Assembly (NCBI GenBank): GCA_964613135.1
Contig: CAZTHI010000001.1
Coordinates: 14,029 to 70,324 of the forward strand
Source: an uncultured Gammaproteobacteria bacterium
GTDB taxonomy: Bacteria; Patescibacteriota; Microgenomatia; PFEM01; CAZTHI01
DNA: 56,296 nt
Direction of reading: 5' to 3'
Under the pieces are notes generated by a model that did no database searches, was not told the origin of the DNA, and saw nothing but the letters and a program-made list of their open reading frames with translations. Shown here piece after piece: positions 1,152 through 46,746 of the stretch. Made by a program: the position numbers and the translations under genes. The first letter of the stretch is position 1. Each line of letters opens with the position of its first letter.

Positions 1152-1697
1152 CTATTTTAGCATAACGGCGTGATAGCTGACAATCGCGGCGGAAACGATG
1201 ACGTTCAGCGAGCGGTTGACGCCAAACATGGGGATTTCGACGACTTGGCCGGCCATTTTTAGAGTGGCCGGCAGAACGCCGAAAGTTTCGTTGCCAAAGA
1301 TTAGAGCAAGCGGTAACTGATATGTAGCTTTATAGTAAGGAATACTTTGATCGCTTTGTTCCACCGCCACACAATTTAATTTTAAATTTTCAATTTTCAA
1401 TTTTAAATTTAGATCGGCGATGGCTTCTTGAGCCGATCGCTTGTACTCCCAGGGCACGATTTTATACGTCCCGATCGAGGCCTTGGTAATTTTGGAGTTG
1501 GGCGGCGTCTCCATGTCGCCGCAGAGAAAGATTTTTGCGATGTTTAAGGCGTCGGCCAGCCGAAAAAGGCCGCCGATATTGTAGGTATCGTAGATATTTT
1601 CCAGAAGAAAATAAATTGGCTGGCGGGGACCGGCCATTAGTTTTTTAACGGTTTCGCTTTCCGGCAAATGTCTTAATTGTTGGGCGTTAAGTTTCAT
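1152..1697 (-). CDS. SpoU/TrmH-family RNA 2'-O-methyltransferase
   Basis: The C-terminal 'LIFGNETFGV..IPMFGVNRSLNVIVSAAIV' matches the SpoU methylase knot motifs. Confidence 0.8.
   Translation of the reverse strand: MKLNAQQLRHLPESETVKKLMAGPRQPIYFLLENIYDTYNIGGLFRLADALNIAKIFLCGDMETPPNSKITKASIGTYKIVPWEYKRSAQEAIADLNLKLKIENLKLNCVAVEQSDQSIPYYKATYQLPLALIFGNETFGVLPATLKMAGQVVEIPMFGVNRSLNVIVSAAIVSYHAVMLK
1154..1162 (-). promoter_or_regulatory. extended -10 (TGCTAAAAT) upstream of tRNA-Thr(GGT)
   Basis: The motif is formed by the last codons and stop of the trmH-like gene, about 28 nt upstream of the tRNA 5' end. Confidence 0.5.
1374..1412. repeat. heptamer tandem array (AATTTTC/TTTTNAA, about 5 units)
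   Basis: The array aatttaattttaaattttcaattttcaattttaaatttag encodes LNLKLKIENLKLN. Confidence 0.9.
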
Positions 1698-2140
1698 TGA
1701 AGGATGGTGGAGTCGCCGATCTTAAGATTTAATTTTTTGATTTGGCCGGCATTGATTTCTAAAACCTGATCGAACGGTTGGGCCACCACCACGGTTTGGG
1801 GTTCTTGGTTCGGGCCGGGGAAGGGGATGTTCTCGGCCAAGTTGATAACTTTTTGGCCCCGAATAAAGACAAAATCGAGATTAAATTTCATGTCCTTCAT
1901 CCAGAAGGTGTATTCATCGGCCTTCTTGAAGATAAATAACATGCCCGCGTTTTCCGGCAGTTTTTCCCGGCCGGAAAGCCCTTGGACGATTTTTGCCGGT
2001 GTATCGGCCATTTCCACTAAAATCGTTTGGCCATTGATCACAATTTGTGGTGCCGTGTTTTTAGGCGCCAAAAATTTTGCCCCCAGCAAAAGGCCGGCCA
2101 AAATGACCAAAAGGAAAAGTATTTTTAGCGTGGAAGACAT
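1694..2140 (-). CDS. DUF192 family protein with signal anchor
   Basis: 'GMLFIF..FWMKDMKFNLDFVFI' is the DUF192 pattern. I chose the ATG at 2140 because the track's TTG start at 2149 overlaps tRNA-Tyr. Confidence 0.7.
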   Translation of the reverse strand: MSSTLKILFLLVILAGLLLGAKFLAPKNTAPQIVINGQTILVEMADTPAKIVQGLSGREKLPENAGMLFIFKKADEYTFWMKDMKFNLDFVFIRGQKVINLAENIPFPGPNQEPQTVVVAQPFDQVLEINAGQIKKLNLKIGDSTILQ

Positions 2141-2143
2141 GGG

Positions 2144-2226
2144 TGCCAAGGCCAGGATTCGGACCTGGGAAGCCTTGCGGCTCCTCTTTTACAGAGAGGT
2201 GCGTTTGTCCACTTCGCTACCTTGGC
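2144..2226 (-). tRNA. tRNA-Tyr (anticodon GTA), long variable arm
   Basis: Acceptor gccaagg/ccttggc, anticodon loop ctGTAaa, class II variable arm, no encoded CCA. Confidence 0.9.
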
Positions 2227-2235
2227 TTGATGCTG

Positions 2236-2244
2236 ATTTTAGCA
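2236..2244 (-). promoter_or_regulatory. extended -10 (TGCTAAAAT) upstream of tRNA-Tyr
   Basis: TGCTAAAAT-cagcatc, followed about 3 nt later by the tRNA 5' end. Confidence 0.6.
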
Positions 2245-2259
2245 TAAAAAGAAGGGTTT

Positions 2260-2700
2260 TTAAACTTTAAGACGGAAAGACTTGCGGGTGGTCAGGCCGG
2301 AATTAAGCCTGGAGGTGACCACAAGGCGGGCAGCGGTAATGTTGGTGTGCCAGCGGCAAACATTTTTCGAGCAGGTGCCGAATAACAGCTCGCGACTAGC
2401 CGTGTTTGACGCGGTGCCGGAAACGGTACCGCGCGCTCCCTGGGGAATGCCGGCGGCGGTATAAGTTAGCTCATAAGTCACGGAAGTGGCGTTGTTCAGG
2501 CCGGAAAAACTGACAATGATGCCCAGTCGATTGGCTTTAAATTTGACCGAAGAGGCCACCCGGCCGGCGGTAGTCGTTCCTGAACTGACAGTCATGCTTG
2601 CTCCACGCGCAGTTCTGGCTTTGGCCGCCCAAACTGAGCTCGGCCAGACCAGTGGCACTGAGATTGCCAAGAGAACAAAAATGATGATTTTTGGCTTCAC
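2260..2700 (-). CDS. hypothetical secreted protein
   Basis: N-terminal signal peptide MKPKIIIFVLLAISVPLVWPSSVWA. GTG start 6 nt after a TATACT box at 2707-2712. Confidence 0.5.
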   Translation of the reverse strand: MKPKIIIFVLLAISVPLVWPSSVWAAKARTARGASMTVSSGTTTAGRVASSVKFKANRLGIIVSFSGLNNATSVTYELTYTAAGIPQGARGTVSGTASNTASRELLFGTCSKNVCRWHTNITAARLVVTSRLNSGLTTRKSFRLKV

Positions 2701-2716
2701 GATTTCAGTATACTAG

Positions 2717-45385: not shown

Positions 45386-45386
45386 G

Positions 45387-45677
45387 ATGTTTGATAATTT
45401 AAAACAAGGTGTCGGCCAATTAAATGACTTGCGGAAGATGCGCGACCAGGCGATGCAAATTCAGCGCCAATTGGCGGCTGAAGAAGTCGTTTTGGAAGAG
45501 CAAGGCGTGCGCGTGGTAATGACCGGCGATCAGAAAATTAAAGAGCTGACGGTAACCGGGGTGGCCAATCAGATTTTGGTGGACGTGTTGAATAAAGCTA
45601 TTCGCCGCTCTCAGGAGATTGCCGCCAAAAAGCTTCAGGCGATGAGCGGTGGCTTAGGCGGGCTGTTAGGCAAATGA
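45387..45677 (+). CDS. ybaB: YbaB/EbfC nucleoid-associated protein
   Basis: 'MFDNLKQ...MRDQAMQIQRQL...VVMTGDQKIKEL'. Confidence 0.8.
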   Translation: MFDNLKQGVGQLNDLRKMRDQAMQIQRQLAAEEVVLEEQGVRVVMTGDQKIKELTVTGVANQILVDVLNKAIRRSQEIAAKKLQAMSGGLGGLLGK

Positions 45678-46282
45678 TTCTGCCGAAATCGATTCGTAAT
45701 CTAACCGAGGCGTTTGAGAAGTTACCGGGCATTGGGCCCAAAACAGCCGCCAGGCTGACTTTTTACCTGCTGCATGTGCCCCAGGAACAGTTGGACGAAT
45801 TTGCGGGGGCGTTGTCAGAATTAAAGAAAAACACGGTTTTGTGTTCTCTGTGTTACAACGTGGCCGAAACCGATCCCTGTCCGATTTGTACCGACCAGAA
45901 CCGCGATAAAACGAAGATTTTAGTAGTGGAGCAGCCGCTGGACGTTTTGGCGATTGAAAAAACCGGCGATTATAAAGGAGCCTATCATGTTTTGCACGGC
46001 GCCATTTCGCCCTTAAACAATATCGGTCCCGACGAACTGTATATCAAGCAACTATTGGACCGTATCTCGTCTTACGTTTCGCCTATCACGGAAATTATCC
46101 TGGCGACCAATCCGAACATGGAGGGCGAGGCCACGGCGATGTATCTCGCGAAGCAATTGAAAATTGAAAATTGTAAATTGAAAATTACTCGTTTGGGTCA
46201 AGGCTTGCCGACGGGCGGGGATTTGGAATATGCCGATGAGTCCACCTTAAGCCGTGCGTTGGAGGGAAGACGAGAATGTTAA
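45674..46282 (+). CDS. recR: recombination protein RecR
   Basis: 'LPGIGPKTAARL', a C4 zinc finger, and the Toprim motif 'EGEATAMYL'. Confidence 0.9.
   Translation: MILPKSIRNLTEAFEKLPGIGPKTAARLTFYLLHVPQEQLDEFAGALSELKKNTVLCSLCYNVAETDPCPICTDQNRDKTKILVVEQPLDVLAIEKTGDYKGAYHVLHGAISPLNNIGPDELYIKQLLDRISSYVSPITEIILATNPNMEGEATAMYLAKQLKIENCKLKITRLGQGLPTGGDLEYADESTLSRALEGRREC
46156..46186. repeat. heptamer array ATTGAAA x4
   Basis: Encodes LKIENCKLKI. Confidence 0.9.
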
Positions 46283-46316
46283 AATTCGAAACCCGAAACT
46301 CGAAATCCGAAACAAA
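46282..46316. repeat. heptamer array AAANNCG x4-5 (left flank)
   Basis: aaattcgaaacccgaaactcgaaatccgaaacaaa. Confidence 0.9.
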
Positions 46317-46321
46317 CTTAA

Positions 46322-46687
46322 ATGACCAAAACTCAAAATTCGAAACGATTTGATCTGGAAGAAAGAACTTTAGCTTTTGCCAAGGCGATAAGGCTGTTTG
46401 TCGGGGAATTGCCAAGAACCACTTCTAATATTGAAGATATAAGCCAACTAATAAGGTCATCGGGATCGGTAGGGGCTAATTATATTGAAGCGAATGAATC
46501 TTTAAGCAAAAAAGATTTTATAATGAGAGTCAAAATTTGCCGCAAAGAGGCAAAAGAATCGTCTTATTGGTTGAAGTTGATAAACACGAGTGATAGTCTA
46601 AGACTTGGGAAAGAAAGAGACAATTTAATTAAAGAAACGATTGAGCTAATGAGTATTTTTGGTTCAATTATCCGCAAATTAGAATGA
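46322..46687 (+). CDS. four-helix-bundle protein (23S rRNA intervening-sequence protein family)
   Basis: 'QLIRSSGSVGANYIEANESLSKKDFIMRVKICRKEAKESSYWLKL' is the family signature. Confidence 0.8.
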   Translation: MTKTQNSKRFDLEERTLAFAKAIRLFVGELPRTTSNIEDISQLIRSSGSVGANYIEANESLSKKDFIMRVKICRKEAKESSYWLKLINTSDSLRLGKERDNLIKETIELMSIFGSIIRKLE

Positions 46688-46690
46688 TAT

Positions 46691-46746
46691 TTTGAAAATT
46701 TGAATTTCGAGATTGTTTCGAGTTTCGATATTCGAATTTCGAGTTT
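46691..46746. repeat. heptamer array CGANNTT x5 (right flank, inverted relative to the left)
   Basis: tttcgagattgtttcgagtttcgatattcgaatttcgagttt. Up to 12-13 nt are complementary to the left array. Confidence 0.9.

Follow-up and report, generated by a model that had tools for sequence, protein, structure and literature searches.

The window analyzed here, a stretch of 56,296 nt from contig CAZTHI010000001.1, contains a set of short tandem arrays of 7-nt units, most of which are embedded in housekeeping genes whose reading frames stay open. On balance we favor the view that these arrays are heptanucleotide simple-sequence repeats (SSRs) of the same general kind as the short tandemly repeated repetitive (STRR) sequences and the TAACTGA repeats, and that they evolve by strand misalignment in 7-nt register. 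The evidence comes from their excess over shuffled sequence, from the way they overlay native protein segments, and from the 7-aa steps and in-phase substitutions by which they differ between related genomes.

Heptanucleotide arrays in housekeeping genes

Tandem Repeats Finder detected 20 period-7 arrays in the window between positions 1378 and 51857, plus two period-14 entries that redescribe some of them; other short-period repeats were scarce in its output. In a scan of our own, an array was counted when 18 or more of 21 positions were identical to the base p nucleotides downstream (p = 3 to 15). It returned 12 arrays of period 7, eight of period 14 (twice 7), a single one of period 12 and none of any other period, and not one period-7 array was found by it in 50 Markov-2 shuffles of the window. 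Exact-run counting agrees with the period-7 excess, and looser thresholds raise the number to 16-17 arrays. An earlier note on this DNA had listed such arrays at more than 20 AT-rich sites. The sites it named are all present, including the degenerate one in fmt; the total is rather about 20-21 with marginal cases included, and AT richness is a property of the mean (GC 0.27, compared with 0.47 for the window) and not of every array (range 0.06 to 0.48). Array edges are sharp.

Window proteins are identical to COT65_ locus-tag entries of a metagenome-assembled genome of Candidatus Shapirobacteria (Microgenomates, candidate phyla radiation [CPR]), and the array-bearing proteins recur identically on 2-12 contigs in NCBI, JGI, ENA and Logan. 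Ten independent assemblies spanning positions 36.3-56.3 kb are 99.9% identical, with scattered single-nucleotide polymorphisms (SNPs) and no indels; the comparison takes in six arrays, all free of SNPs and indels at the level of consensus assemblies, which hide minor variants. Because the same arrays are present in at least ten independent assemblies, from several samples and pipelines, they are not assembly artefacts. Together with their absence from the shuffles, the intact open reading frames (ORFs) running through them and homologous arrays in relatives, this refutes an artefact of assembly or sequencing as well as a chance feature of base composition. The arrays are thus real and stable at population scale.

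Sixteen of the 19 main arrays lie wholly within long ORFs that stay open, one (yqeY) provides a TGA stop, and two are intergenic. That most arrays are inside genes is a consequence of a genome that is about 92% coding (0.925 in the window), array hosts being 9 of some 72 genes. The hosts confirmed by Pfam are SpoU/TrmH, Fmt, an O-antigen ligase with TPR repeats, PBP2, TopA, FolD, an M50/RseP protease, YqeY, DnaX and RecR. An Rfam search gave no known RNA family at any array or at the cassette described below. The arrays are the following.

1378..1410, minus strand: trmH array in the SpoU/TrmH-like methyltransferase gene (1152-1697); 32-nt AATT(GAAAATT)4 with 2 substitutions; peptide LNLKLKIENLKLN
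11637..11661, minus strand: GAGATGT array, 3.6 copies, in the fmt C-terminal domain; peptide SHISHLTS
11702..11728, minus strand: degenerate CGTATCN array in fmt; peptide KRDTGYERRR
15191..15221, minus strand: AAAAGTA array, 4.4 perfect copies, in the gene of the O-antigen-ligase/TPR membrane protein; T-rich strand is sense; hydrophobic peptide LLFTFYFLLLIL
15266..15294, minus strand: degenerate TCTTTCG array in the O-antigen-ligase/TPR gene; peptide DTKDEIRETKE
15411..15442, minus strand: degenerate AACTGAT (TAACTGA-class) array, 32 nt, reverse orientation, in the O-antigen-ligase/TPR gene; peptide VISCQLSVISS
16001..16027, minus strand: AAGTTAT array, 3.9 copies, in the O-antigen-ligase/TPR gene
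16197..16227, minus strand: ACGTAAT array, 4.4 copies; peptide RITYHVLRITL; GC-rich hairpin (16171-16189) 8 nt upstream
16339..16360, minus strand: short TGATAAC (TAACTGA-class) array in the O-antigen-ligase/TPR gene; peptide QVISYLFS
22607..22638, plus strand: degenerate AAATTCC array, 32 nt, in the PBP2 transpeptidase gene; peptide NSQLQNPNSKS
25489..25526, plus strand: AAATGGA/GAATGGA array, 5.4 copies, in the topA hypervariable loop after the Toprim domain; peptide EMENGKWRMENGKK; adjoined by a native hairpin (25472-25488)
25566..25590, plus strand: ATTCTCA array, 3.6 perfect copies, in the same post-Toprim loop of topA; peptide LILNSQFSIPN
26338..26370, plus strand: topA site 3 array, AATT(GAAAATT)4 with 3 substitutions; peptide ELKIENLKLEI
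34296..34327, plus strand: folD array, perfect, 32 nt, unit AATTTTC, the reverse complement of the GAAAATT module; peptide KFSIFNFQFSI
36886..36919, plus strand: rseP array, perfect AAAGTTC, 4.9 copies, in the M50 protease gene; peptide SSKFKVQSSKF
43514..43545, plus strand: array at the yqeY 3' end, perfect 32-nt AATT(GAAAATT)4; ELKIEN followed by the TGA stop, last 12 nt non-coding
44874..44905, plus strand: array in the dnaX linker, 32-nt AAAC(TCGAAAC)4; peptide KTRNSKPETRN
46155..46186, plus strand: recR array, AATT(GAAAATT)4 with 1 substitution (TGA to TGT); peptide QLKIENCKLKI

Six arrays lie within 14572-16785 according to Tandem Repeats Finder, and the O-antigen-ligase/TPR gene of two related loci, L085 and L086, holds an array resembling the AAAAGTA array of the window.

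Since the ORFs are kept open across the arrays, these are presumably transcribed and translated as peptides with a 7-aa period. LKIENLK, FSIFNFQ, SKFKVQS, ENGKWRM and TRNSKPE exemplify this period, as the earlier note had proposed, and FSIFNFQFSIAPDK and SSKFKVQSSK are further peptides that the arrays would encode. Both orientations of one unit are found on coding strands, also in agreement with that note: GAAAATT is sense in trmH, topA, yqeY and recR and antisense in folD. In sense orientation it is read as L-K-I-E-N-x-K-L with an in-frame TGA every 21 nt, and the codon at x, following GAA AAT, is TTA in trmH and topA, TGT in recR, and TGA in yqeY, where it is the real stop. T-rich sense strands prevail in the membrane protein and yield hydrophobic peptides such as FTFYFLL, VISCQLSVIS and RITYHVL, whereas soluble proteins mostly have A-rich sense strands, with peptides rich in K, E, N and Q. 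This choice of strand is consistent with filtering by selection.

Alignments to solved structures of homologues in the Protein Data Bank (PDB) show that the arrays mostly overlay native segments with little or no change in length. The FolD segment aligns without gaps (native INKNNVIYSIKPEKDVD vs FSIFNFQFSIAPDKDVD in the window), that of TopA site 3 is longer by 1 aa (NVMAESLK-DMEADAQ in E. coli vs ELKIENLKLEIGADEM), that of RecR by 2 aa (native LLKPF--GVKV vs QLKIENCKLKI), and the TrmH array, over the native 'FRFLKERGFTV' segment, by 0 to 3 aa. With differences of only 0 to +3 aa, a simple-insertion model was rejected for most arrays. An AlphaFold model of FolD is still confident as a whole, the mean predicted local distance difference test score (pLDDT) being 94.6. 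Among 10-residue blocks, residues 101-110 score lowest (77); the array-encoded segment (about residues 103-113) starts within this block and is modeled as short helical turns. We infer that arrays persist only at structurally permissive segments of their host proteins.

Variation between genomes and the proposed mechanism

A change in unit number has the effect on the host gene that the earlier note had anticipated. A contig of 2356 nt (L001) that is otherwise 100% identical to the window lacks exactly two AATTTTC units of the folD array (-14 nt), which splits the gene. Its source is sample ERZ27293393, as is that of a second contig (L178) starting inside the yqeY array (position 43520 of the window), and this pair may signal array heterogeneity in the sample.

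Between species, arrays turn over at fixed sites. In 111 FolD homologues the loop from the QLP motif to the P-x-KDVD motif shows length peaks at 12, 15, 17, 19, 24 and 31 residues; among these, 12-19 and 17-24-31 form series with steps of 7 aa, i.e. 21 nt or three units. RecR retains a 13-aa loop in 48 of 105 homologues while its peptide alternates between QLKIENCKLKI, QFKVQSSKFKV, QFKILNFKFKI and QLKTQNLKLKI. The folD genes of L085 and L086 are 88% identical and their arrays align without gaps, with differences at the same position of successive units (AAAATGC AAAATAC AAAGTTC AAAATGC vs AAAGTTC AAAGTTC AAAGTTC AAAGTGC), which at the level of sequence reads as a concerted, length-neutral change. 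At TopA site 3, three species that are 83-85% identical carry AAATTCC, AAATATC or AATTTTC arrays, units which are two substitutions apart and in the same orientation.

TopA homologues at 60-70% identity range from about 650 to 718 residues, and their extra length is confined to the same three loops that hold arrays in the window. The loop peptides are of heptamer type (KFQIPNS, SKFKVQS, NFKFKILN, EIRNPKFEIRN, NFQFSISNFQ), and LKIENWELKI and FEIRNSKFEI are additional examples from the same loops in relatives' TopA, FolD and RecR. The underlying DNA arrays share part of the unit repertoire of the window (AAAGTTC, AAATTCC, AAAATTC, GAAAATT, AAAAAGT, AAAATGC). A TopA of 1247-1251 aa was observed in a relative (L091 194-3937; L092 2-3757), where it includes an intein with a LAGLIDADG domain.

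Array density is uneven among these genomes. At the strict threshold, period-7 arrays per kb number 0.21 in the window, 0.36 in L085, 0.14 in L086, 0.09 in L002, 0.05 in L087 and 0 in each of L088, L089, L090, L183 and L184; the value of 0.69 for L091 refers to a lenient threshold. Arrays have proliferated in the Shapirobacteria lineage of the window and in some, but not all, related Microgenomates. As to whether they are simply ordinary in related genomes, a possibility raised in the earlier note, some relatives carry arrays at the same sites and others that are equally close carry none.

A scan of a genome collection with TopA peptide patterns drew mostly Bacteroidales and Omnitrophota; these loci were rejected as relatives and kept as outgroup control. 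The outgroup topA loci, 1.2 Mb in total, have 0.012 arrays per kb. Even so, no other period is as common as 7 in them, and one Omnitrophota locus, L017, equals the window in density. Outgroup arrays of about 4.4 units (29-33 nt) were noted within a few tens of nt upstream of the start codons of long genes (L017 10535-10596, 12683-12742 and 14652-14687; L037 9917-9948; L051 7081-7109; L056 10047-10074; L070 9891-9919).

We infer that the underlying process is strand misalignment in 7-nt register during replication or repair. Misalignments left unresolved would add or remove whole units, and in genes only changes by three units (21 nt, 7 aa) or compensated ones would survive. A transient misalignment followed by realignment would leave bases templated from the neighboring unit, which would homogenize the units at constant length and allow an array to spread over native sequence, while selection would purge stops that fall in frame as well as ill-suited peptides. 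Plausible seeds are strings of native codons, for example xAA TTG AAA ATT, which encodes (E/Q)-L-K-I, and an 11-nt seed extended by 21 nt would give the common length of 32 nt. Incorporation of oligonucleotides of a single polarity was also considered and dropped, because a single replichore contains GAAAATT arrays of either orientation.

Perfect GC-rich hairpins in the window are at chance level (5 vs 4.9 expected); two of the five lie within 8 nt of an array (16171-16189 and 25472-25488), the one in topA being native coding sequence (AAQILRE) that is kept in L002. Such hairpins may be stalling sites that favor misalignment, or their position may be a coincidence. A separate observation concerns tiny GC-rich hairpin elements (TCCCGCCttccGGCGGGA, CTGCCTGCCCGGCAGGCAG, GCCCACAAGGTGGGATTCCTTCGGAATG) that are nested in AT-rich heptamer arrays of relatives and translated in frame, giving peptides such as LPPSGGTPPKAVAKS in FolD and TopA. 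They were seen at L091 9340-9500 (FolD), at about L085 11175-11200 (TopA site 3) and at about L003 217-245, the last one being absent from the 99%-identical L002 (about 350-380). They presumably resemble the small dispersed repeats of Nostoc.

A conserved cassette with heptamer-array arms and alternative explanations

Two further arrays had been placed by the earlier note on the flanks of 46322-46687. They are not incidental and form parts of the paired, 58-nt inverted arms of a conserved cassette that encloses a four-helix-bundle gene.

46282..46339, plus strand: left (5') arm; 32-nt AAAYYCG array (46282-46313), then AAACTTAA, ATG and the first codons
46322..46687, plus strand: gene of the four-helix-bundle protein, 121 aa; PF05635 23S_rRNA_IVP, TIGR02436; Avd-like
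46689..46746, plus strand: right (3') arm, reverse complement of the left arm; 58 nt, 71% complementary; array at 46715-46746

The protein matches PF05635 and TIGR02436 with 47.9 and 72.6 bits, above the cut-offs, and a related PDB entry, 2rld, contains five chains. In the predicted RNA the 5' arm, including the start codon, pairs with the 3' arm at a duplex energy of -43.4 kcal/mol. A metagenome scan for homologues of the protein yielded 80 loci (L093-L172; 60-73% identity), in which the density of period-7 arrays is 2.73 per kb in the 90 nt next to the gene ends, as opposed to 0.13 per kb elsewhere. The typical layout is (AAATYCG)x4 followed by AAACAAATTCAA-ATG upstream and the reverse complement downstream. 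Arms usually consist of four units plus AAAC; of 201 arrays found by Tandem Repeats Finder, 94 fall into the 4.x-copy class, and the commonest length is 31-32 nt. The two arms co-vary: 38 loci combine an upstream unit ending in CG with a downstream unit beginning with CG, and 14 loci have CT upstream and AG downstream, while each mismatched combination occurs in only 1-3 loci. Mean duplex energy over 77 loci is -39.4 kcal/mol for own arms vs -22.8 for shuffled ones. Arms remain AT-rich arrays in contigs of GC 0.31 to 0.66. Some loci contain tandem cassettes, and divergent paralogues use other arm units, including AATTTTC (L171) and AAAGTTC (L165), which are the units of the folD and rseP arrays in the window.

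The cassette is located between recR and a protein gene. In two relatives whose RecR is 82% and 78% identical (L183 2109-2128; L184 6609-6634) the site is empty, recR being followed after 18-24 nt by a homologue of the gene at 46757-47257. The 474-nt cassette is thus an insertion in the lineage of the window, or it was lost twice. The dnaX array, 1.4 kb upstream, is identical in unit and design to the upstream arm. The cassette is conserved and apparently mobile. Among viral contigs no relative of the protein was found. Pairs of inverted heptamer arrays without a four-helix-bundle ORF between them were observed in Bacteroidales (L049 4289-4365; L084 2219-2836), for example AATGAAG x4.4 and, 14 nt on, ATTCTTC x4.4; the pair in L084 was rejected as a cassette of this type for lack of such an ORF.

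Several features of the arrays do not sit easily with misalignment as the explanation. Copy number peaks at about 4.6 units (13 of the 20 window arrays have 4.x copies, seven being exactly 32 nt long) and does not decay from two copies as free slippage would predict. Inside genes, frame selection can account for this peak if a seed of 11 nt is extended by 21 nt. The same mode is found, however, in outgroup arrays, 20 of 23 of which are not inside long ORFs and many of which lie just upstream of start codons, so that frame selection alone is insufficient; the non-coding arms of the cassette share it as well. Five GAAAATT arrays, including that of yqeY, have identical AATT(GAAAATT)4 boundaries with 0-3 substitutions, and this class supplies 5 of the 19 arrays, far more than predicted from its background frequency of 0.3% of heptamers. 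The arrays also stand out as sharp AT-rich islands (GC 0.27) in genes of GC 0.47, and they are not hypervariable, given ten assemblies with SNPs elsewhere and neither SNP nor indel in an array. Finally, L088, L090, L183 and L184 are equally close relatives without arrays, the TopA of L090 being as close to that of the window as the TopA of array-rich relatives, and a lineage-specific factor is therefore needed.

Taking into account these features, the arrays could be discrete modules of about 32 nt, made of five 4-nt cores at 7-nt spacing as in AATT(GAAAATT)4 or AAAC(TCGAAAC)4, that belong to the PF05635 Avd-like cassette system as recognition sites of an oligomeric protein; the genic copies would then be solo arms that have dispersed, or else sequences which this machinery produces or targets. 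This would accommodate the concentration of arrays at the ends of the cassette gene, the co-variation of the arms and their AT richness whatever the GC content of the host, the units that paralogue arms share with folD and rseP, the design common to the dnaX array and the arm, the empty sites and the five chains of 2rld. It is also in line with the 4.x mode in intergenic arrays of other phyla, and with an array density outside the cassette that is 5-6 times higher on four-helix-bundle contigs than in outgroup loci (0.13 vs 0.023 per kb). We nevertheless consider it unlikely, because growth of the FolD loop by 7 aa, not 11 aa, and divergence of same-site arrays between related species by in-phase substitutions and not by block replacement fit misalignment better than block insertion. 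Moreover, solo arrays are not accompanied by a conserved flank, by a target duplication or by the arm extension (AAACAAATTCAAATG), and they are found both along and against the direction of transcription. No four-helix-bundle gene was found in the 10-22 kb sampled from the array-rich L085, L086 and L091, and a test of the distance between solo units and local arms had no discriminating power, the arm windows being long and AT-rich. Protein binding and cassette mobility are predictions of this model. Still more doubtful is its widest form, in which arrays of about 4.6 units are a defined cis-element recognized by oligomeric proteins of the Avd/23S intervening sequence (IVS) family, whose genes travel as cassettes bounded by inverted arrays, and in which the solo arrays in genes and 5' leaders of CPR bacteria, Omnitrophota, Bacteroidota, cyanobacteria and Beggiatoaceae are copies made or maintained by that system. 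If true, it would supply a mechanistic origin for the long-unexplained STRR/TAACTGA-type repeats, and the tie between heptamer arrays and an Avd/23S-IVS-family cassette makes their origin and function testable.

It seems improbable that the arrays are cis-regulatory or switch elements, be it mRNA or DNA sites for S1-, cold-shock-protein- or Csr-type proteins, as proposed for TAACTGA, or contingency loci turned on and off via unit number. Outgroup and cassette arrays that end a few nt upstream of start codons, as in Beggiatoaceae (PMC4679880), the frameshifted folD variant and the contig of ERZ27293393 that breaks inside the yqeY array would fit such a role. By contrast, 16 of the 19 arrays in the window are internal to ORFs, in both orientations and at varied positions; their hosts are housekeeping genes and not surface or virulence genes, units vary from gene to gene, and copy number is invariant in ten assemblies. 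Misalignment in 7-nt register remains the favored explanation.

The arrays show a route by which proteins of a reduced genome gain and quickly remodel short lineage-specific segments, a repeat that is no multiple of three and is read in three frames overwriting loops and helices in TopA, FolD, RecR, DnaX and TrmH. The length-neutral, in-phase homogenization of 7-nt units, for which the evidence is at the sequence level, limits any model for the preference for period 7 in bacteria. A practical consequence is that gene callers, aligners and low-complexity filters can go wrong on such arrays in CPR genomes.

Other features of the window deserve brief mention. A 21/63-nt tandem repeat, TTTCAGTCCCGAAACATCGTT (about 5 copies, 70-77% matches), occupies 9524-9674 within an ORF on the minus strand (9297-9788) that encodes a 163-aa coiled-coil or Lpp-like protein; its unit is divisible by 3 and it is a different kind of repeat. 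Heptamers aside, the one notable perfect short repeat is GACACCAACCCC x2.6, with a 12-nt unit, at 5271-5301. The YbeY ORF (43582-43875) begins 37 nt past the yqeY array, overlaps the dnaX start, and with 93-97 aa covers Pfam positions 30-83 of 129, perhaps because of a truncation or a different start. Genes of toxin-antitoxin type (two PIN, Fic, RelB/YafQ) are interspersed among the housekeeping genes at 37.9-38.6 kb, 41.4-42.0 kb, 47441-48169 and 51.2-51.8 kb.

Comparison with known repeat systems

The likeness to cyanobacterial STRRs to which the earlier note had drawn attention extends to the period of 7, the tandem arrangement and the dispersal through the genome. The arrays are not members of that group, however: the STRR units, which we take to be CCCCAAT, TTGGTCA and CAACAGT, do not occur in tandem in the window, the host belongs to Shapirobacteria/Microgenomates and not to the cyanobacteria, and STRRs are mainly intergenic.

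Heptanucleotide repeats are the most abundant class of long SSRs (LSSRs) in most prokaryotic genomes; polymerase slippage has been proposed as their origin and a 7-nt polymerase contact as a reason for the period (Mrazek, Guo and Shah 2007, summarized in PMC4679880 and PMC4692102). The window resembles this class in its direct head-to-tail 7-nt units of few, at least three, copies, in their occurrence above chance (12-20 arrays vs 0 in shuffles), in the outstanding role of period 7 and in the proposed slippage in 7-nt register. It differs in location, as published LSSRs are mainly intergenic and have in-gene units that are multiples of 3, whereas 16 of 19 arrays (84%) here are inside ORFs of core genes. 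Further differences are a density about 10-20 times that of the outgroup and a copy number peaked at 4.6 units.

TAACTGA repeats are patchily distributed in Beggiatoaceae, cyanobacteria and Bacteroidetes in 2-6 copies (MacGregor 2015, PMC4679880). A few lie inside ORFs, in reverse orientation and encoding LSVISYQ-type peptides, whereas the forward orientation has stops in all frames (PMC4679880). The O-antigen ligase peptides VISCQLSVISS and QVISYLFS are derived from units of this class, and GAAAATT likewise carries stops. The array at 16339-16360 contains GATAACTGATAACT (1.7-2 TAACTGA units) and that at 15411-15442 is a degenerate 4.6-unit version; both are internal to the ORF and in reverse orientation and not forward and upstream of a start. 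The unit itself is present in about 3 tandem copies in a Woesebacteria locus (L008), and the outgroup arrays just upstream of start codons echo the pattern of Beggiatoaceae. The published repeats, by contrast, have one dominant unit, lie mostly at least 1 nt upstream of starts and decay in copy number from 2, while the arrays of the window comprise many units and are mostly inside genes, including the middle of enzymes. In view of the published in-ORF cases, the statement of the earlier note that arrays within such genes are undescribed applies only to the density in core genes and to CPR bacteria, for both of which our literature searches found no report. Within the literature searched, the core-gene density in a CPR bacterium, the overlay of native segments, the evidence for length-neutral concerted change and the cassette arms are undescribed.

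The tandem repeats of Borgs give rise to disordered protein regions and have units divisible by 3 when inside ORFs (PMC9879509). They are likewise (near-)perfect repeats that arise de novo in ORFs, evolve fast and add low-complexity peptide. The unit of 7 nt studied here is not divisible by 3; successive units are consequently read in each of the three frames, and a gene tolerates only steps of 21 nt or changes that leave the length as it is. With contingency loci such as the heptanucleotide repeats of H. influenzae HMW1A and E. coli NeuO, the arrays share a repeat that is no multiple of 3, is located in or next to a gene and shifts the frame when a unit is gained or lost. Those loci, however, are many-copy, fast-switching and associated with surface or virulence functions, whereas the arrays have 4-5 copies, reside in housekeeping genes and show 0 indels in ten assemblies at the consensus level.

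The cassette differs from the known members of the 23S-IVS/Avd family (PF05635/TIGR02436; PMC10053308) in that it lies outside an rRNA gene, the window containing no rRNA. No reverse transcriptase domain was detected among the genes called within 10 kb of it, the template repeat/variable repeat pair not having been searched for, and literature searches returned no description of a cassette with heptamer-array arms. It nevertheless encodes a protein of the same family, and its gene is bracketed by inverted repeats with a predicted long stem, as are the intervening sequences of rRNA.

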